From assembly GCA_903894955.1 (NCBI GenBank), contig CAITSA010000028.1:8495-72494 (forward strand): DNA of 64,000 nucleotides. Reading direction: 5' to 3'. Under the pieces are notes generated by a model. That model was given only the letters and a program-made list of their open reading frames with translations, was not told the DNA's origin and searched no databases. This DNA is from an uncultured bacterium. Its GTDB lineage: Bacteria > Patescibacteriota > Minisyncoccia > Phycocordibacterales > UBA9973. Below, piece after piece: positions 4,448-28,807 of this stretch. Position 1 is the stretch's first letter. Each line of letters starts with the position of its first letter. Made by a program: the position numbers and the translations under genes.

Positions 4448-5356
4448 TCATAAATTCTTCTCAGCTTCAATGAAAATATCTAGCCCACCATTCAAAACTG
4501 CATCAATATTGGAAGTTTCCATGCCCGTCCGGTGATCTTTGACCATTTTATAAGGGTGCAGGACATAAGAACGGATCTGATTCCCCCATTCTATTTCAGT
4601 ATTTTTAGTTAATTTCAGACTTTCTTCCATACTTTCCTTGTCTGCTTCTGCTTTTTTGAAAATTTTTGCTAAAAGAATAGCCATGGCTCTCTCTCGATTT
4701 TGTTCTTGGGAACGTTCATTGGAGGCATGCACAGCTATCCCGGTAGGAATATGCACCAAACGAACTGCCGTTTCCCTTTTGTTTACATTCTGCCCCCCAG
4801 GACCGCCAGAGCGAGAATATTCTATTTTTAAATCAGCGGCCGGTATTACAAAATTCTTTTCTTCAAGTTTAGAAAATTTAGGCAAAACTTCCACCATGGA
4901 AAAAGAAGTGTGCCGTAATTTCTTTGCATCAAAAGGTGAAATTCTCACAAGACGATGGACCCCACTTTCATTCTTTAGTATTCCATAAGGTCCCTGCCTG
5001 CTTGCCAAAGCCTTGCTTTGGCAGATTTCAAAAGAAACATTCCTATATCCATTATGTTCATTTTTATTTTCATGAATAAAAAAAACTTTCCAACCTTTTT
5101 TGTTTATGTATTTTATATACATCGATAAAAGCATCGCTGAAAAATCTTCCGCATCATCCCCTCCTGCTCCAGAAATTATTGTGATGACAGCGTTGCCTTT
5201 GTCATACTTACCTATACCTTCTTTTTTTTCTTTCAATTCTGCTAATTCTTTCAATGTCGCCTGAGCTTTATTTTTATCACTCCAAAAGTCCGGAGTGCTC
5301 ATTTGCTCTTCTAAATTTTTTATTTGCTCATTAATATCATTTGTATCTTTGTCCAT
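4448..5356 (-). CDS. prfB: peptide chain release factor 2 (short N-terminus)
   Basis: GGQ motif ([11 protein letters not shown]) and RF2-specific SPF motif (VRISPF). No in-frame UGA/frameshift site at the 5' end. Carries an in-frame GC-rich palindromic insert at 4992-5024. Confidence 0.85.
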
Positions 5357-5442: not shown

Positions 5443-5500
5443 ATTTTTGGTGCTCTACTTCACCCCGCCTTGGCGGGGTAAGCTGAGCTACAACGGCAAT
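5443..5500 (-). pseudogene. tRNA 5'-half remnant (acceptor plus D-arm of a Thr-like tRNA) with a GC hairpin (ccccgccttggcgggg) inserted in the D-loop region
   Basis: Minus-strand reading GCCGTTGTAGCTCAGC..hairpin..GTAGAGCACC duplicates the first ~25 nt of the adjacent tRNA-Thr(GGT). No anticodon or T arm. Confidence 0.4.
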
Positions 5501-9209: not shown

Positions 9210-9890
9210 TTATGCAATTTTTGATATATATTCTATAGCACCTAAGATTTTATTTCGTAAAGTTGTGCCTTTTCTTACTTTAACCCTTAAAATACCTTTA
9301 TACTTTTCTATGTTTTTCAAAGAAGCTTTTTTAAGATTCGTCTGAATATAAGTAGTTTTTGAAAATTGTTCTTTGGTAATACCTAAGAAGTTTATCCAAA
9401 AGGATTTTATATTATTTTCTTCTTTCCTAAAAAATTCATTCAAAGTAAGACGAAAGATAAGAGAATCTTTTTCCACATTCCATAATCCTAACCATTTAAA
9501 ATAAAAACGTATCATGTATGGATTACTGTTTGTAAACCCAAATTCACCATTTTCATATTTATAGCCTTCTCCCCAATACAATCCAAAACCAACCATTAAA
9601 ATATCTCTATCCGATAACGTACCTAAGGCTTTGATACCCTCTTGTCTTTGTAAAATATTTCTTTCAATTCTTTCTTTTCTCTTTAATTCAGAAAATCTTA
9701 AAAGACCCCTGACGGATTCTAGCTTTCCTTGTGTTTTTATTTTTTTTATTGCAGATTCAGTGAGAATCATGTCTTTACACCAAAAACTAAGAGTGGATTT
9801 TGTGACATTTAACTTTTTTGAAATATCACCTAAACTCATACCACTTTTCCGCATTTTTTTTGCTGTTTCTTTTACTTGTGGATAGTACAT
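9210..9890 (-). CDS. hypothetical DNA-binding protein (N-terminal HTH; possible degenerate LAGLIDADG-like GFGLYWGEGY segment)
   Basis: The ORF-track start at 9986 runs into AT-rich junk. The likely start is M33 at 9890 or M45 at 9854. HTH segment LGDISKKLNVTKSTLSFW. Confidence 0.4.
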   Translation of the reverse strand: MYYPQVKETAKKMRKSGMSLGDISKKLNVTKSTLSFWCKDMILTESAIKKIKTQGKLESVRGLLRFSELKRKERIERNILQRQEGIKALGTLSDRDILMVGFGLYWGEGYKYENGEFGFTNSNPYMIRFYFKWLGLWNVEKDSLIFRLTLNEFFRKEENNIKSFWINFLGITKEQFSKTTYIQTNLKKASLKNIEKYKGILRVKVRKGTTLRNKILGAIEYISKIA

Positions 9891-9966
9891 AAGGTATATT
9901 ATAACTAAGAGTGAGTACAAAAACAACTTGCGTATTTTAAAAATATAATATAAAATAATCTGTATA

Positions 9967-10278
9967 GCGGGGTAGAGAAGAGGCATCTCGTAAGGCTCAG
10001 CGGTATAAAATGGGCCCCCTCTTGGGAAACCTTGAGGTGAGCATTCGTCAAATTCGGAGAAATCCTCTCTGTTAATTAATAGAAGGACAATTCCGAGCTA
10101 AATTTTTTAACTTATGTTAAAAATAAATGTGTAGAGACTAGATGGCGAACTCCTTAATCTTTAAATTTATTTTTAGACAGGAGATGGTATAGTCCAGACC
10201 ACAAATTCAATTTGAAGCAGTGAAAACTGAAGTGGTAAAGCATAACCTTAAGACTCACGTTCGATTCGTGACCCCGCA
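9967..10278 (+). ncRNA. ssrA: candidate tmRNA (ssrA)
   Basis: About 312 nt GC-enriched non-coding stretch. The 5' GCGGGG pairs with 3' CCCCGC-A, and a canonical T-arm TCACG-TTCGATT-CGTGA lies immediately 5' of it. A possible tag reading frame GCA..taa tag is at 10041-10082. No G3:U70 pair seen. Confidence 0.4.
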
Positions 10279-11047: not shown

Positions 11048-12484
11048 CTACAGGGCTATATTAGCCTCAAATTTCTTGCCAATTTCAAAGAGTAAATCCT
11101 CTGCCCCATGTGAGGCCATAAGTTGAATTCCAAGTGGTAATCTTTTTCCTGCCTGCGCAAGGTCTTCTATTTCCATGAAACCTGATGGTAAAGAAACAGC
11201 TGGCACGCCGACAAGGTTAGCGGTCACGGTAAAGATATCAGCTAAATACATAGAAAGTGGATCACTTTTCTCCCCTATTTTCCAAGCCGGAATGGGAGAG
11301 GTTGGTGTTAAGATTAAATCAACTTCAGAAAATAATTCTATAAACTCTTTTCTTAAAGCTATTCTGGCTTTTTGTGCCTTGCCATAATAAGCATCATAAT
11401 ATCCAGCCGAAAGCACGTAAGCGCCAAGTAAAATTCTTCTGCGAGTTTCCTTGCCAAAACCAGCGCCCTTGGTTAGTAAATAGTCTTCCAGTAAATTTTT
11501 ACCATCTTTATGCAAACCGTATCTTACTCCATCAAAACGAGCTAGGTTAGTTGAAACTTCAGCAAAATTAATAATGTAATATAGAGCTAGGCAATTTGGT
11601 AATTTAATATCTTTAATTTTATAACCTAAATTCTCAAAACTTTTTACTACTTCTTCAAAATTTTTCTTTATTTCAAGATTAATTCCTTCTTGATTTATCA
11701 AGTCCCAAGGTACACCAATAATTAATTCTTTTTTGAGAGAAATTTTCTCATAAAAGTTATCAGGAACACTAGTGCTGTCTAAGATATCGTTTCCTTTTAT
11801 GACATCAAATATAATTTGAGCATCTTCTGTCGTTTTAGTAATTGGCCCAATAACATCAAAAGATGATACTGCCGCGATAAGGCCATAACGAGAGACTCCC
11901 CCATAAGTAGGTTTCATTCCAACTACTCCACAAAAAGCAGCTGGGTGACGAACTGAGCCTCCAGTATCTGAACCTAAGGACGCCAATGCCATATTACTGG
12001 CCACGGCAACGGCTGAACCACCAGAAGTACCTCCAGGCACTCTATTGGTATCGTGAGGATTTTTGGTCACTCCATAGGCAGAATTTTCAGTCGAACTCCC
12101 TAAGGCAAATTCATCCATATTTGTTCGGCCCAGAAATACCGCTCCTTGTTTCTTCAACTTAATTATTGCAGTGGCGTCATAAGAAGCTGTATAATTTTCT
12201 AAAATTTTTGAGGCCGAAGAAACTTTTCTACCTTTGATTAAAATAACATCTTTAATGGCCAAAGGAATACCCAAAAGCGGAGATGAATCCCCTTTAGCGA
12301 TCCGCTCATCTGCCTCTTTTGCTTGATCTAACACATCATCATAGACTTCTAAATAAGCATTGAGTTCTTTGTTTTTCTTTTCAATCTCAGCTAAATAAGC
12401 TTTCGCTAAATCTACCGCGGAAAAAATTTTTCCATCAAGAGCCACTCTTGCTTTAGTGATAGTGAGAGTATCTAAATCAATCAT
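11048..12484 (-). CDS. gatA: Glu-tRNA(Gln)/Asp-tRNA(Asn) amidotransferase subunit A
   Basis: 478 aa with amidase signature GGSSGGSAVAVAS. Confidence 0.9.
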   Translation of the reverse strand: MIDLDTLTITKARVALDGKIFSAVDLAKAYLAEIEKKNKELNAYLEVYDDVLDQAKEADERIAKGDSSPLLGIPLAIKDVILIKGRKVSSASKILENYTASYDATAIIKLKKQGAVFLGRTNMDEFALGSSTENSAYGVTKNPHDTNRVPGGTSGGSAVAVASNMALASLGSDTGGSVRHPAAFCGVVGMKPTYGGVSRYGLIAAVSSFDVIGPITKTTEDAQIIFDVIKGNDILDSTSVPDNFYEKISLKKELIIGVPWDLINQEGINLEIKKNFEEVVKSFENLGYKIKDIKLPNCLALYYIINFAEVSTNLARFDGVRYGLHKDGKNLLEDYLLTKGAGFGKETRRRILLGAYVLSAGYYDAYYGKAQKARIALRKEFIELFSEVDLILTPTSPIPAWKIGEKSDPLSMYLADIFTVTANLVGVPAVSLPSGFMEIEDLAQAGKRLPLGIQLMASHGAEDLLFEIGKKFEANIAL

Positions 12485-15322: not shown

Positions 15323-15337
15323 ACTTGTATTGTAGCA

Positions 15338-15414
15338 CCCAGTAGTGAATTTTGGCAATGTGCTAGGGCACGTAAATTTTTTTAAAATTTACCTTGCCAA
15401 AATCTACTACTGGG
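15338..15414. mobile_element. 77-bp MITE copy A (21-bp TIR cccagtagtgaattttggcaa / ttgccaaaatctactactggg; flanking 5-bp direct repeat TAGCA)
   Basis: Near-perfect terminal inverted repeats. Target-site-duplication-like TAGCA at 15333-15337 and 15415-15419. A second copy is at 22533-22609. Confidence 0.7.
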
Positions 15415-15467
15415 TAGCACTTATTTCCCGTCTGCAAAAGCTAGGCTTTAGCATTACGGGCAGGTTT

Positions 15468-15512: not shown

Positions 15513-15548
15513 AACGCCAGTAATAAGGACAGTCCTTGCTACTTTTTG

Positions 15549-19688: not shown

Positions 19689-20563
19689 TTTATATTCTTC
19701 GCTACGATTAATACATTACTAAGAAGCATCGCAACAGTGACTGGCCCCACGCCTCCGGGCACAGGCGATACATAACCTGCCACTTCCGAAACGGAATCTA
19801 AATCAATATCTCCTACAATACCAGCGCCGGACTCAGAAGTTCCTGCGTCAATTAAGATTGCACCTTCTTTTACCATATTACCTTTTATCAACTTCCCTTT
19901 CCCAGTAGCAGAAATAATAACATCAGCCTCTTTTAATCTTTTTATTCTTTCAGCTTCTTCTGTTTTTCTATCTATGACAAATGTTTCTAAATTTCTCGCA
20001 TTGAGTAATTTCCTAACTGGACGACCCACGAGTTCACCCTTGCCAATTATTATTATTTTTTTATCTTTCAAGTCTAAATTCAAGGAATCAAGTAAATGCA
20101 TACAAGCCAGAGCTGTAGGGAAAGTAATAGTAAAATCTCCCTGCCTACCTTGCCTACCGGCAGGCAGGCCGGGCAGGCAGGCATTGTAAAACTTTTCACT
20201 CGCGATATTTCCGAGACAATCCACATCAAGCTTCGAATCTATGGCATCTAATATACGCCTTTGGTCTAGCGATGCAGGCAATGGAAGTTGAACAATAATT
20301 CCGCACATATTTTCTACTTTATTTAAAATCTTTATTTCTTTAACTAAATCTTCAGTGGTAATACCCGAGGGAAAAGAAGCACTTTGGAATTTGATACCCA
20401 CTGACTCTGACATACGTGCTTTCATTCTTACATACTGGGCTGAGACAGGATCCTCCCCTACCAACACATCACAAAAAATCGGATTAAAAGAAAGTGTAGC
20501 TACTTCTTCTTTCACTTTGGCTAAAATTTCGTCTCGTATTTTTTTCCCATCAATTATTTTCAT
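19685..20563 (-). CDS. folD: bifunctional methylene-THF dehydrogenase/methenyl-THF cyclohydrolase
   Basis: 292 aa FolD-like throughout. Carries an in-frame GC-rich insert encoding LPGLPAGRQGRQG. Confidence 0.9.
   Translation of the reverse strand: MKIIDGKKIRDEILAKVKEEVATLSFNPIFCDVLVGEDPVSAQYVRMKARMSESVGIKFQSASFPSGITTEDLVKEIKILNKVENMCGIIVQLPLPASLDQRRILDAIDSKLDVDCLGNIASEKFYNACLPGLPAGRQGRQGDFTITFPTALACMHLLDSLNLDLKDKKIIIIGKGELVGRPVRKLLNARNLETFVIDRKTEEAERIKRLKEADVIISATGKGKLIKGNMVKEGAILIDAGTSESGAGIVGDIDLDSVSEVAGYVSPVPGGVGPVTVAMLLSNVLIVAKNIK
20138..20183. repeat. GC-rich CTGCC/GGCAG palindromic element inserted in-frame in folD
   Basis: ctccctgcctaccttgcctaccggcaggcaggccgggcaggcagg. About 70% GC in a roughly 30% GC gene. 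Confidence 0.7.
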
Positions 20564-22517: not shown

Positions 22518-22532
22518 AAAGATATAATAACA

Positions 22533-22609
22533 CCCCGTAGTAGATTTTGGCAATGTAAATTTTTTTTAAAATTTACGCACTTTGTGCTTTGCCAAAATTC
22601 ACTACAGGG
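22533..22609. mobile_element. 77-bp MITE copy B (inverted relative to copy A; flanking 5-bp direct repeat TAACA)
   Basis: TIR ccccgtagtagattttggcaa / ttgccaaaattcactacaggg. TAACA at 22528-22532 and 22610-22614. Confidence 0.7.
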
Positions 22610-22728
22610 TAACATGATTGATTTTCTTGAGCAAAGCAATCAAAAATGAGCCTAAATGAGTAAGAGCCCGAACATTTGCTTTTGACAAATGCCGGGCCCT
22701 AGAGATTTCGATTATTGGAGGTTAAATT

Positions 22729-23114: not shown

Positions 23115-25319
<2,205 letters not shown>

Positions 25320-25960: not shown

Positions 25961-26431
25961 CTAAATTTCTAAATTAAATAAATCTTCTGAAAAAGAAATA
26001 CTATAAGTACCAGAACCCTGAACCCAATTGACTTTTGAGGTAATAGTTACTTCATCATCACTAATTTTTGTCTTTGTAATTGTACGAGTAAAAGTAGAAT
26101 CATGATTAGGACAAGAACTATCATCTATGGAAAGAGTCACGAAATTACTCCAATTCTGGGCTGGGATTGTATCTGTATATAAAATATAATTATCACGAAT
26201 ATTTCTCACACACTCAATCCCCTCCTGGGCTAAATATGAAGCTACTATTTTCTGTTTAGCATAACTAATATCAGAAACACCAGACGCTAAAATTGATATC
26301 ATGCCCAAAATAGACATAGTAAAAATTGAAATAGCTACAAGCGTTTCTACTAAGGTGAATGCCCGCCTGTAAAAGCTATGCTTTAAGCATTGTGGGCAGA
26401 TTTGATTGTTTTTTTTAAAAAATAATTTCAT
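25961..26431 (-). CDS. type IV minor pilin/pseudopilin
   Basis: RRA|FTLVETLVAISIF with Glu at +5. Confidence 0.7.
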   Translation of the reverse strand: MKLFFKKNNQICPQCLKHSFYRRAFTLVETLVAISIFTMSILGMISILASGVSDISYAKQKIVASYLAQEGIECVRNIRDNYILYTDTIPAQNWSNFVTLSIDDSSCPNHDSTFTRTITKTKISDDEVTITSKVNWVQGSGTYSISFSEDLFNLEI

Positions 26432-27934: not shown

Positions 27935-28807
27935 CTAAAAAAGACCTAAGCCAAAAAGAAATACTAATGATGTACCTAAAACCAAATATGGAGCAAAAGG
28001 AATTTCGCTTTTCATCCCATATTTTTTATTAGACAGCGAAGCACTTCCTAGGCGGGAAAAAATAATCAAAGAAAGGCCAACGAGAGCCCCAATCCAAAAG
28101 GCAAAGACCAACCCATAGAGGGCAAAAGGAAAACCAAGCAACCACCCTAAGCTAATTGCAAGTTTTGCGTCCCCTAACCCCATCCATTTTCCAGCAGATA
28201 TCAACCAAAAAAAAGCAAAAGGGAAAGCCATGATTGGACCTATAAAAAATCCCAAAAGAGTAGGCAAATGTGGAGAAAAACTCAAATAACCTGCCTGCGC
28301 CCAGCCTGCGCTGGCAGGAAGCAGACCATCAATCTGCAAAAAGAATAAACCAGCCAAAGTTAAGATACCTAGAACTAAAGAAAGAATATCAGGAATTATT
28401 TTGTGTTTTAAATCATAAACTGCAATTACGACAAAAAGAGAGAAAACAACAGCATAATAAGCATAAGTGAAAGTAAAAGAAAGTGTATTCACGAAGAATA
28501 GGTCCTGAAATTTTAAAAACAAAAGAGCAAAAATAAAGCCAGTGATAAGTTCTACCAGTGGATACTGAAGCGATATTTTAGTTTTACAATTTTTACATCT
28601 TCCCCTCAATCCTAAGAAACTAAAAACGGGTATAAGTTCTAGCCAAGTAAGTTTATTTTGACAAGACATACATCCACTTCTTCCGCCGAAAGATTTCTGA
28701 GTATTTAAACGAAGAATGATGACATTTAAAAAGCTTCCAATAATTAGGCCAAGGATGAAGAAAATTGTTGTGAGAATAGTAATCATAAAACTTTTTAAGA
28801 ACCACAA
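27935..28807 (-). CDS. pilD: prepilin peptidase (A24 family)
   Basis: N-terminal Cys-x-x-Cys pairs, 8 TM, conserved Asp-containing regions. Carries an in-frame GC-rich insert at 28290-28326. Confidence 0.85.
   Translation of the reverse strand: MWFLKSFMITILTTIFFILGLIIGSFLNVIILRLNTQKSFGGRSGCMSCQNKLTWLELIPVFSFLGLRGRCKNCKTKISLQYPLVELITGFIFALLFLKFQDLFFVNTLSFTFTYAYYAVVFSLFVVIAVYDLKHKIIPDILSLVLGILTLAGLFFLQIDGLLPASAGWAQAGYLSFSPHLPTLLGFFIGPIMAFPFAFFWLISAGKWMGLGDAKLAISLGWLLGFPFALYGLVFAFWIGALVGLSLIIFSRLGSASLSNKKYGMKSEIPFAPYLVLGTSLVFLFGLGLF
28290..28326. repeat. GC-rich CTGCC/GGCAG palindromic element inserted in-frame in pilD
   Basis: cctgcctgcgcccagcctgcgctggcaggaagcag encodes LLPASAGWAQAGY. Confidence 0.65.

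Follow-up and report, generated by a model that had tools for sequence, protein, structure and literature searches.

Very short GC-rich palindromes inserted in frame into genes of a Candidatus Nomurabacteria genome: probable REP-like repeats tolerated as translated loops

How do GC-rich palindromes of a few tens of nucleotides come to lie within the coding sequences of a genome of low GC content, and to persist there as translated sequence? The question is raised by a stretch of 64 kb from a Candidatus Nomurabacteria genome (Paceibacterota, CPR, as assigned through its closest loci)—hereafter the window, by which we mean the whole stretch—with a GC content of 34.7%, and not the roughly 30% given in a preliminary description of this DNA, and a coding density of 91%. 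That description had proposed a single family of palindromes in folD, ligA, pilD, and prfB; the palindromes do lie at the positions it gave or within a few bases of them (Table 1), and the peptides it quoted are correct. Three of those loci—folD, ligA, and pilD—are genuine CCTGCC…GGCAGG palindromes, which elements we term family A; the prfB insert is a different hairpin having a 9-nt half-site in common with them, and a further copy, in gatA, had been overlooked. For comparison we used the syntenic locus of the nearest sequenced relative (L005), of which 34 kb were searched and about 28 kb could be aligned to the window. The reading that we favor, at a probability of about 0.6, is that these are REP-like selfish palindromes tolerated as translated loops.

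Table 1. Palindromic and hairpin-forming features of the 64-kb window.
Feature	Gene or location	Positions	Strand	Description
Family A	folD	20140..20181	-	42 nt, encodes ACLPGLPAGRQGRQ; two nested/duplicated 21-nt units: outer CCTGCCTGCCCGG..TAGGCAGG, inner CCTGCCTGCCGGTAGGCAAGG
Family A	ligA	24638..24678	-	palindrome of 41 nt, net insertion of 39 nt vs L005; outer unit CCTGCCTGC..CGGCAGGCAGG, inner 21-mer CCTGCCTACCGGACAGGCAGG
Family A	pilD (prepilin peptidase, Pfam A24)	28290..28318	-	29 nt; net +33 nt including 7 nt nearby
Degenerate family A	gatA (Pfam Amidase)	11148..11162	-	CCTGCCTGCGCAAGG, the 18-mer minus 3 nt
prfB insert	prfB (RF2)	4993..5023	-	hairpin TGCCAAAGC-AAG-GCTTTGGCA (5003-5023) plus half-site GCAGGCAGG (4993-5001)
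P-type element	type IV pilin-like gene, leader peptide	26362..26400	-	39 nt, …ICPQCLKHSFYRRA/FTLVE
P-type element	intergenic	15427..15464	-	CCTGCCCGTAATGCTAAAGCCTAGCTTTTGCAGACGGG
REP doublet CAAGGAC(G/C)GTCCTT, not family A	ligA	24934..24974	-	39-nt insertion vs L005
Third copy of the ligA-doublet REP		15525-15538		
Long hairpin, not family A	ligA	24420..24522	-	~84-nt insertion vs L005
82-nt MITE		22528-22614		target-site duplication TGTTA
82-nt MITE		15333-15420		target-site duplication GTGCTA

The pattern CCTGCC-N(0-30)-GGCAGG occurs at three loci in the window (five overlapping matches), with 0.01 expected from 100 dinucleotide shuffles; for a looser family A pattern the chance expectation is 0.04. 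The basic unit is a palindrome of 18-21 nt with stems of 7-9 bp, as in the 18-mer CCTGCCTGCGCAGGCAGG; some units, that 18-mer among them, are perfectly symmetrical and have no loop, and composites of 29-42 nt have fold energies of -22 to -37 kcal/mol. The elements contain 74-81% GC versus about 35% in the window background, and the folD and ligA inserts each consist of two nested units with duplicated arms. The 18-mer is free of stop codons in all frames, and the 21-mer contains one stop codon, in one frame only; the inserted peptides are rich in Pro, Ala, Gly, Arg, and Gln because CCTGCC/GGCAGG is so read in any frame. Hairpin stability is equal on the sense and antisense strands (72 versus 68), without any bias toward the mRNA strand, which equality points to a symmetry of the DNA rather than of the mRNA; and a search of Rfam placed a known RNA family at none of the elements. 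All four family A copies of the window (folD, ligA, pilD, gatA) are intragenic, and all the near-exact copies in relatives fall within ORFs; since the coding density is 91%, such a placement is what random insertion would be expected to give.

Relative to L005 the folD insert appears as a clean gap of 42 nt, with 34/40 and 35/40 identical positions in the flanks; it is missing from 115 of 120 homologues, including FolD proteins of 92-94% amino-acid identity to that of the window. Across this region the FolD peptide reads KFYNACLPGLPAGRQGRQGDF. The preliminary description had foreseen a surface loop, and the AlphaFold model of FolD is compatible with one: within a confident structure (mean pLDDT 91.8) the sole segment below 50, and the only disordered loop, comprises residues 132-141, inside the insert, a segment that the solved FolD structures do not have. 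Of the 82 LigA sequences compared (that of the window, those of 80 related loci, and a duplicate), only the window's has the family A insert. That of pilD, a clean in-frame gap in the alignment with L005, adds LPASAGWAQAG to a loop that connects predicted membrane segments; among 74 PilD sequences it is present only in the window and in L151, 72 of the 73 others being without it, and between those two the insert is identical at 27/27 nt versus 68% for the genes overall. The gatA copy, a window-specific net insertion of 15 nt in frame, encodes part of DLAQAG between flanks with 36/40 and 32/40 identical positions. The stability of the RNA hairpins, for which the preliminary description had suggested a folding test, was confirmed in folD (-36 kcal/mol, z -4.9) and ligA (-37.3 kcal/mol, z -3.5), but was weaker in pilD (z -1.4) and not significant in prfB (z -0.7).

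The polarity of the differences is uniform. Over the approximately 28 kb of synteny, every strongly hairpin-forming indel is on the side of the window—family A (four copies), the REP doublet, the hairpins of 84 nt and of prfB, an intergenic CCCCGCC hairpin, and the two 82-nt MITEs—and none comparable is on that of the relative, whose own specific indels show no comparable folding; the 34 kb searched in the relative contained no family A copy. At eight sites within ORFs the net length difference is 42, 39, 39, 84, 33, 24, 21, or 15 nt, always a multiple of three, and no insert introduces a stop codon in the frame used; the three intergenic inserts measure 82, 82, and 56 nt. The earlier statement that all copies are multiples of three accordingly holds for the net insertions versus the closest relative (42, 39, 33, and 21 nt), though not for the spans then quoted (46, 44, and 37 nt). 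The boundaries of family A are ambiguous by 1 nt at folD, and at the other sites no target-site duplication is found. Judged by these alignments, with clean gaps in L005 and empty sites in nearly all homologues, the family A copies are lineage-specific in-frame insertions and not conserved loops, as the preliminary description had supposed. Within 90% protein clusters, which had one or two members, we found no presence/absence variants.

Since chimeras of MDA or of assembly can give rise to palindromes and the source is a metagenome-assembled genome, chimeric palindromic junctions were weighed as an explanation, one that the preliminary description had itself put forward as a possible refutation; but FolD with the insert is found, as exactly the same protein, on at least eight contigs from six sample accessions, with differing contig-naming styles, and in four independently assembled contigs that were read the 42 nt of insert DNA are identical. 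Moreover, the window RF2 with its insert is present on 5 contigs, related copies occur in many independent MAGs, and the reading frame is kept in every case, so that an artefact of assembly or amplification has, in our estimation, a practically negligible probability.

The prfB insert stands apart. It replaces QGRNA with a net gain of seven amino acids (21 nt), and its resemblance to family A is limited to the 9-nt half-site. In the nearest RF2 (P0122/L211, 91% identity) the site is empty; L212 has the same hairpin, with GGTGGGCATG versus AGCAGGCAGG in the window, and the hairpin is common to other RF2 orthologues that have no CCTGCC/GGCAGG ends. From these sequences the insert is a doubtful or diverged relative, and no clear member, of family A. 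Some GC-rich hairpin is present at one and the same site in about half of the 120 RF2 orthologues; these hairpins are mutually unrelated in sequence. The "PAKAG" inserts of RF2, considered as family A on the basis of their peptides, were ruled out by their DNA, CCCCGCTAAGGCGGGG.

Family A itself extends beyond the window. The exact 18-mer is found in folD of L006, in truB of L202, and in an aminoacyl-tRNA synthetase anticodon-domain gene of L151; the 21-mer has an exact copy in folD of L010, the reverse complement of which insert is exactly the inner unit of the ligA insert in the window. The density is about one copy per 16 kb in the window versus about one per 700 kb over 1.4 Mb of relatives. 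On the strength of these sequence matches, family A is a dispersed repeat family, present in other Nomurabacteria, too, within non-homologous genes. In viral contigs with a GC content of 31-73% the same 18-, 20-, and 21-mers occur, which occurrence hints at a host range well beyond the CPR; a BLAST search of the ligA element against plasmids gave chance-level matches in high-GC bacteria only. The recurrence of identical 18- and 21-nt sequences at unrelated loci and in different genomes also bears on whether the palindromes were made de novo at each site, through template switching, snap-back synthesis, or expansion of CCTG/CAGG tetranucleotides. Such an origin would be in keeping with the arms, which resemble (CCTG)n/(CAGG)n and are duplicated in folD and ligA, with the perfect symmetry of the 18-mer, and with hot spots that hold many different hairpins; but the arms are not copied from the flanks, and their GC content is foreign to a 35% background, so that, together with the shared sequences, we regard de novo formation as very unlikely.

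Related to family A is a second element, the P-type, with the consensus ends CCTGCCCGC…GCAGGCGGG, which differ from those of family A by one base per arm. The copy in the pilin leader of the window has the near-consensus ends TCTGCCCAC…ACAGGCGGG, and the pilin leaders of L146, L150, L172, and L181 contain the same element at the same place. When translated in a different frame, the P-type gives rise to PARNA…AGG inserts in TruB (L140), LigA (L198), and FolD (P0016, P0049). The orientation of the P-type is that of the host gene in 14 of 15 in-ORF matches, which near-uniformity would fit a strand-specific, single-strand (HUH-type) integration. The intergenic copy has a degenerate orthologous counterpart in the relative (L005 14337-14374, equivalent to the L211 1315-1352 site). 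Insertions recur in pilin leader peptides and at one turn of RF2.

What makes family A unusual is the repeated insertion at an identical nucleotide across separate lineages. In folD it occupies the same nucleotide in three or more separate clades of Paceibacteria, each with sister sequences that have an empty site, and its four inserts there differ from one another (18 nt, 18 nt with one mismatch, 21 nt, and 42 nt); in pilD the same loop is occupied in two non-sister lineages. Our literature searches found no comparably short element inserted at one fixed nucleotide in separate lineages. Random transposition alone does not explain either this recurrence in folD or the 27/27 identity in pilD, and three further readings address it.

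If the hairpins were functional cis-elements under selection, in DNA or in mRNA—for instance sites bound by a conserved protein, signals for ribosome pausing or mRNA stability, or signals of the uptake type—the 27/27 nt retained in pilD between genes of 68% identity, the four lineages with family A at a single folD nucleotide, the hairpin-bearing site in about half of the RF2 orthologues, and the agreement of the P-type with the orientation of its host gene would all be anticipated. Against such a function, the elements are missing at every site in the closest relative and in the great majority of orthologues, the stability of the sense strand is not favored, the hairpins of the RF2 hot spot are unrelated in sequence, the nested duplications and the gatA copy with its 3-nt deletion look like decay rather than maintenance, and the density, both in the window and in the relatives, is far below that of uptake signals; we therefore consider selection for a cis-function improbable. 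We deem equally improbable that alleles already bearing the inserts had spread among Nomurabacteria by natural transformation and short-patch homologous recombination instead of by repeated transposition. The window does encode a type IV pilus/competence cluster (PilB, PilC, PilT, PilM, PilO, PilD, pilins, and a ComFC-like protein), and an exchange of alleles would account for an identical folD position in three clades with empty sisters, for the two non-sister pilD lineages, and for an identity of the pilD insert far above that of its flanks; but the flanking bases contain no co-converted tract, the four folD inserts are unlike each other, and non-homologous genes—ligA, gatA, truB, and the synthetase gene—are out of the reach of recombination, so that a transposition-like step would still be required. 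As a third possibility, somewhat less doubtful than these two though still tentative, family A and the P-type, with their shared 9-nt ends, might together constitute a site-preferring, or "homing", mini-palindrome; if that were true, an element of about 20 nt would integrate under the guidance of structure or sequence, or else would spread between species by transformation-driven gene conversion.

A mobilizing enzyme for family A was sought in the window and elsewhere. RAYT-like Y1 genes (with HFH as the HUH motif, and YIHLNP) were found in nine related loci, in seven of which the gene is flanked on both sides by a locus-specific palindrome of 17-27 nt; family A flanks none of the nine, at which either other palindromes or none were detected. 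The RAYT-like gene of L008, a candidate partner in being near a folD insert, was rejected, its flanking REP being TAGCTAGGTCTTGCCTAGCTA and not family A. The 64-kb window contains no transposase or HUH gene according to Pfam (about 50 ORFs) and to tblastn with two and then eight RAYT-like proteins; in 120 viral loci no RAYT gene lies beside family A, and a pattern combining the REP with a RAYT motif had no match in viral contigs. In metagenomes that pattern retrieved a single locus, present in four of them, where a truncated RAYT gene has CCTGCCTAGGAAGGCAGG (CCTGCCT-AGGA-AGGCAGG) 27 nt upstream of its ATG. The link is suggestive but weak and could be a coincidence, in that 0.1-1 such cases are estimated to arise by chance because there are thousands of RAYT/REP types. 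The 18-mer contains no GTAG, the 21-mer has it at the top of the stem and not at an end, and the flanks of nine family A copies reveal no common tag.

The window does contain an element with known RAYT-associated kin: the core of the REP doublet in ligA (fold -21.7 kcal/mol, z -4.6) is that of the palindromes that flank the RAYT-like genes of L190 (GCAAGGACAGTCCTTGC), L158, and L185. A further ligA insert, the 84-nt hairpin, has 22-nt arms (CACAAAAGAAGTAGTGAAATTT / AAATTTCACTACTTCTTTTGTG) and a minimum free energy of -38.9 kcal/mol. The 82-nt hairpins were considered as REPINs and rejected as such, since they have target-site duplications of 5-6 nt.

To account for the observed polarity of insertion, the family relationship, the dispersal to non-homologous genes and genomes, the in-frame lengths, and the location of the insert in a FolD loop, we would propose that very short REP-like repeats entered this genome after its split from the nearest sequenced relative, a period in which other palindromic repeat families would have likewise arrived. 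Copies with a length in multiples of three in structurally tolerant places—the disordered loop of FolD, the beta-turn of RF2, the inter-helix loop of PilD, and the cleaved leaders of the pilins—would leave the gene functional, and would consequently persist and be translated; the forms of about 40 nt would result from the insertion or duplication of one unit at the center of another. From its distribution, family A is probably mobile or selfish; and it may move as single-stranded hairpins through the action of a RAYT-like transposase of the HUH/Y1 type, the gene for which would lie elsewhere in the genome or in the community.

According to Di Nocera et al. (2013; PMC3733652), REPs are short stem-loops with stems of 5-13 bp, often as dimers that fold into larger hairpins, and their abundance differs among related genomes; intragenic GTAG- or CGTC-tagged REPs are translated in frame in genes for DNA ligase, tRNA pseudouridine synthase B, and tRNA synthetases; and recB of two Xanthomonas species contains different REPs at about the same site. 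As in the REP/RAYT "REPtrons", sister Nomurabacteria have RAYT-like genes with cognate palindromes, of which type the REP doublet in ligA is an example; and family A, too, is a short stem-loop palindrome. Unlike REPs, which are predominantly extragenic, family A is intragenic at all four of its sites in the window, has no consistent terminal GTAG/CGTC tag, consists of units at or below the short end of REP sizes with nested rather than side-by-side composites, and was found to flank none of the nine RAYT-like genes. The phyla named for GTAG repeats in the consulted passages of that paper (PMC3733652) do not include the Patescibacteria/CPR.

The likeness to Rickettsia palindromic elements drawn in the preliminary description is apt as regards selfish intragenic palindromes. 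RPE-1 to RPE-10 are palindromic repeats situated in frame in housekeeping genes that are unrelated to one another, within a small and AT-rich genome, with peptide segments compatible with the fold and function of the protein, and are read as selfish DNA (PMC10969869). In-frame insertion into unrelated genes, missing from their orthologues, is common to both, but RPEs measure about 100-150 bp, encode a conserved peptide, and occur in Rickettsia alone, whereas family A is GC-rich with far shorter units and presumably has no sequence in common with them. Short GC-rich mobile hairpin repeats in an AT-rich genome are also known as the GC clusters of yeast mitochondria (GC42; PMC4478555) and the RHEs of sponges (PMC2800124). 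These likewise are sporadic among close relatives and comprise several families, with clusters that merge and a hairpin that is conserved though the loops vary; but they are organellar and for the most part lie between genes, with AG reported as their target dinucleotide, and their mechanism is unknown or proposed to be RNA-mediated, so that, with sequence and host unrelated to family A, the comparison is one of analogy only. With bacterial MITEs, finally, family A shares a non-autonomous, hairpin-forming, and dispersed nature, but it is several-fold shorter, has no target-site duplication, and has ends that make up essentially the whole element.

Literature searches on these palindromes, on CPR with in-frame palindromes, and on CPR with RAYT/REPIN found no relevant description. 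The contribution lies in scope, the phylum and the family both being new, and not in principle, the phenomenon being documented in Rickettsia, Opitutus, and proteobacteria.

The CPR/Patescibacteria are commonly viewed as having streamlined genomes, and their proteins bear lineage-specific insertions. Part of that load of insertions can stem from the in-frame invasion of genes by palindromic repeats of very small size, with several inserts possible per conserved gene, as in ligA with its three independent ones. Such repeats would be a concrete source of new loop sequence for reduced genomes and a reason for caution in the annotation and phylogenomics of CPR proteins; and their recurrence at the same site of FolD makes it possible to test by what means palindromes so short select a target.

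We read the CCTGCC…GGCAGG palindromes of the window, hereafter family A, as putative REP-like selfish elements, four copies of which (in folD, ligA, pilD, and gatA) are present in these 64 kb. The palindromes placed by the preliminary description in folD, ligA, and pilD were all found as described: the pattern CCTGCC-N(0-30)-GGCAGG occurred at 3 loci in the window versus 0.01 expected, and a looser two-arm pattern recovered the same 3 loci versus 0.04 in shuffles. Hairpin stability upon RNA folding was borne out for folD and ligA (-36 and -37 kcal/mol, respectively; well beyond shuffled controls), was weaker for pilD, and failed for prfB, whose fold was not significant versus those controls. 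An assembly artefact, through which the elements might have vanished upon re-assembly, is excluded because the exact FolD protein with its insert occurs on at least eight contigs, listed for six sample accessions, and the insert DNA of 42 nt is identical in all four contigs read.

That these segments are lineage-specific insertions and not conserved loops was confirmed by comparison of FolD, LigA, and PilD orthologues and by DNA gaps in the best relative: a clean 42 nt at folD, 39 nt at ligA, 26 + 7 nt at pilD, and a net 15 nt at gatA. The FolD site is empty in 115 of 120 homologues, and the sister sequences P0003 (94%) and P0002 (92%) there read KFYN|GDFTI; the ligA insert is unique to the window among 82 LigA sequences, and that of pilD is limited to the window and locus L151 among 74 PilD sequences. 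In the FolD AlphaFold model (mean pLDDT 91.8) the sole segment predicted below 50, residues 132-141, lies inside the insert, which segment is absent from solved FolD structures. The net differences within ORFs (42, 39, 39, 84, 33, 24, 21, and 15 nt; intergenic inserts measure 82, 82, and 56 nt) are each a multiple of three, so that the frame is kept as originally claimed, which argues that the in-ORF palindromic segments would be translated.

The basic unit of family A is visible in the orthologous folD inserts of three other genomes (Table). The 42-nt insert of the window folD consists of two such 21-mers, one nested in the other; in ligA an outer CCTGCCTGC…CGGCAGGCAGG encloses an inner 21-mer, which in reverse complement matches the L010 folD unit exactly. 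In gatA the 18-mer lacks three bases (CCTGCCTGCGCAAGG). No frame of the 18-mer contains a stop codon, and the inserts make use of all three (ACLRRQ, LPAQAG, PA…); the Pro/Ala/Gly/Arg/Gln composition of the peptides is simply CCTGCC/GGCAGG translated.

The prfB copy had been assigned to the same family, which assignment did not hold: its core hairpin, TGCCAAAGC-AAG-GCTTTGGCA, common to the RF2 of locus L212 and of the homologues P0124-P0126, is different, and only the adjacent GCAGGCAGG, where L212 has GGTGGGCATG, resembles family A. We therefore regard that copy as a putative separate or strongly diverged element. It occupies the RF2 turn FEIxG|K-NAYG, by our reading a beta-turn without extra residues in E. 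coli RF2, and that turn is an insertion hot spot, at which about half of 120 Paceibacteria orthologues (P0121-P0240) carry inserts of 4-30 residues, among them unrelated hairpins such as CCCCGCTAAGGCGGGG; the two inserts from outside the window that were read at the DNA level are unrelated GC-rich hairpins. Some of the insert peptides appear nested (P0141, P0177). Hairpins of the form CCCCGC-loop-GCGGGG, near-identical to the one upstream of prfB, also occur within RF2 in L213 and in several places in L138, L142, L170, and L172.

The window has 34.7% GC, and ORFs, mostly on the minus strand, cover about 91% of it; in a species-level genome collection the closest loci all belong to metagenome-assembled genomes of Candidatus Nomurabacteria/Paceibacterota (Patescibacteria, CPR). 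The best relative, contig JBAYLA010000001.1 (loci L005, L133, and L211), is syntenic with positions 86-28794, with 84-89% nucleotide identity across most of the longer blocks. Throughout this 28-kb alignment the strongly folding indels are all on the window side—the family A copies, a doublet and a long hairpin in ligA, the prfB hairpin, an intergenic hairpin, and two MITEs—which pattern would represent a burst of palindromic DNA in the window lineage. The ligA gene alone holds three independent inserts (family A, the ~84-nt hairpin, and the 39-nt REP doublet). The absence of the MITEs from the relative, together with their clean 5-6 nt target-site duplications (TGTTA and GTGCTA), points to recent activity of a duplication-generating, probably cut-and-paste, transposase for which the window has no gene. 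Rfam also detects a group I intron (RF00028, 80 bits) beside tRNA genes, within a ~1.3-kb stretch unaligned to the relative; the adjoining ORF, without a Pfam match, is possibly a homing endonuclease.

Table. Palindromic elements and accompanying features in the window and in loci (L) of other genomes.
Feature	Sequence or size	Position	Context
Family A unit	CCTGCCTGCGCAGGCAGG, 18 nt	L006	folD insert
Family A unit	CCTGCTTGCGCAGGCAGG	L008	folD insert
Family A unit	CCTGCCTGTCCGGTAGGCAGG, 21 nt	L010	folD insert
RF2 hot spot		window 4993-5023	prfB
Hairpin	CCCCGCCAAGGCGGGG	window 5463-5478	intergenic, upstream of prfB; window-specific
ORF	258 aa	window 9210-9986 (-)	adjoins intron
Group I intron		window 9988-10216 (+)	
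Hairpin	~84 nt, 22-nt arms	window 24420-24522	ligA; window-specific
REP doublet	CAAGGAC(G/C)GTCCTT, 39 nt	window 24934-24974	ligA; window-specific
REP, third copy	CAAGGAC(G/C)GTCCTT	window 15525-15538	
Hairpin MITE	82 nt, arms CCC(T/A)GTAGTGAATTTTGGCAA	window 22528-22614 and 15333-15420	
P-type	CCTGCCCGCAATGC…GCAGGCGGG, 39 nt	window 26362-26400	pilin leader; ends at Gly of G|FTLVE
P-type		L146 6058-6096 and 8891-8929; L150 8922-8960; L172 9435-9473; L181 8352-8390	type IV pilin leaders
Other palindrome family	TCCGCCnAAGGCGGATCCGCCTnnGGCGGA	L146 7054-7081; L170 7358-7390; L150 7074-7109; L154 17803-17837	in ORFs
RAYT-like genes		L008 6916-7637; L212 14786-15537; L158, L185, L190, L191, L201, L144, L147	

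Near-exact family A copies are rare among the relatives (1.41 Mb from 80 related species), being found in L151, L195, and L202; L202 has the exact 18-mer within truB, and L151 has it within a gene for an aaRS anticodon-binding domain. A related element, the P-type (CCTGCCCGC-AATGCTTAAAGCATAGCTTTT-GCAGGCGGG), has the ends of family A but for a single base in each arm, and its orientation is that of the host gene in 14 of 15 in-ORF matches. Read in one frame it yields PARNA…AGG inserts in TruB (L140), LigA (L198), and FolD (P0016, P0049); in another, ACPQCLKHSFCRRG directly before the G|FTLVE cleavage site in the pilin leaders of five genomes, the window included. Since pilin leader peptides are removed by PilD, those leaders would constitute a safe landing site. 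Another palindrome family, encoding SAQGGSA(S/F)GG, occupies in L146 and L170 the very PilD loop that in the window and in L151 is taken by family A, with further copies (L150, L154, and a second in L146) in ORFs. Among the 120 matching IMG/VR contigs listed (loci L011-L130, e.g., L022, L069, L078, and L122), of 31 to 73% GC, the perfect 20-mer CCTGCCTGCCGGCAGGCAGG occurs at least 13 times, the 18-mer at least 7, and the 21-mer at least twice, some contigs having 3-4 copies within ~1.2 kb, so that the motif extends beyond the CPR.

Family A lies at the identical folD nucleotide in four lineages, which fall in three separate clades of the neighbor-joining tree and have empty sister sequences, FolD also tolerating insertions at other sites; likewise, the pilD insert is identical in 27 of 27 nt between the window and L151, in genes that are 68% identical, while closer relatives are without it. 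Such recurrence could reflect repeated targeted insertion, a transfer of inserts between species through recombination, or selection on the hairpin. Different genes have no common target motif, the flanks are without co-conversion, and hairpin stability has no sense-strand bias (72 versus 68). The recurrence is unusual and deserves follow-up.

As to the mobilization of REP-like palindromes, RAYT-like Y1 transposase genes, with HFH as the HUH motif and YIHLNP as the tyrosine motif, were detected in nine related loci (7 of 80 ~22-kb ligA loci, plus L008 and L212), and are thus common in Nomurabacteria. In NCBIfam they match "REP-associated tyrosine transposase" best, at a score under the curated cut-off, and in Pfam they match Y1_Tnp. 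Seven of the nine have their own locus-specific palindrome of 17-27 nt on both sides, the classic layout of the known REPtron; for the CPR we came across no publication that mentions RAYT/REP systems. The ligA doublet of the window shares its core with the REPs that flank these RAYTs in L190, L158, and L185, so that in this clade REP-type elements do insert into genes in frame. Family A itself flanks none of the nine genes, has neither a terminal GTAG/CGTC tag nor target-site duplications at its copies, and no transposase was found in the 64-kb window. In a targeted metagenome scan one truncated RAYT was preceded by CCTGCCTAGGAAGGCAGG, which pairing, RAYT/REP types being many, could by our estimate be due to chance, so that the link of family A to RAYTs is only suggestive. 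We infer that an HUH enzyme encoded elsewhere probably moves family A in the form of a single-stranded hairpin.

Di Nocera et al. (2013; PMC3733652) already describe REPs within genes as translated inserts, for instance in genes for tRNA synthetases and for tRNA pseudouridine synthase B and in that for the DNA ligase of Opitutus terrae. Their REP dimers encode 20-30 residues, and two species of Xanthomonas have different REPs at roughly one and the same site of recB. The classic in-frame insertions are the RPEs (PMC10969869), and the GC clusters of yeast mitochondria (PMC4478555) are analogous to family A as a family of GC-rich hairpins in an AT-rich genome. We found no account in the literature of such elements in the CPR, or of these sequences. 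Of the likeness to RPEs initially proposed, the in-frame intragenic palindromes stand as real, but the kind had already been described in the form of intragenic REPs and RPEs; the finding is real and well supported, and adds to that known kind a new family and a new phylum.
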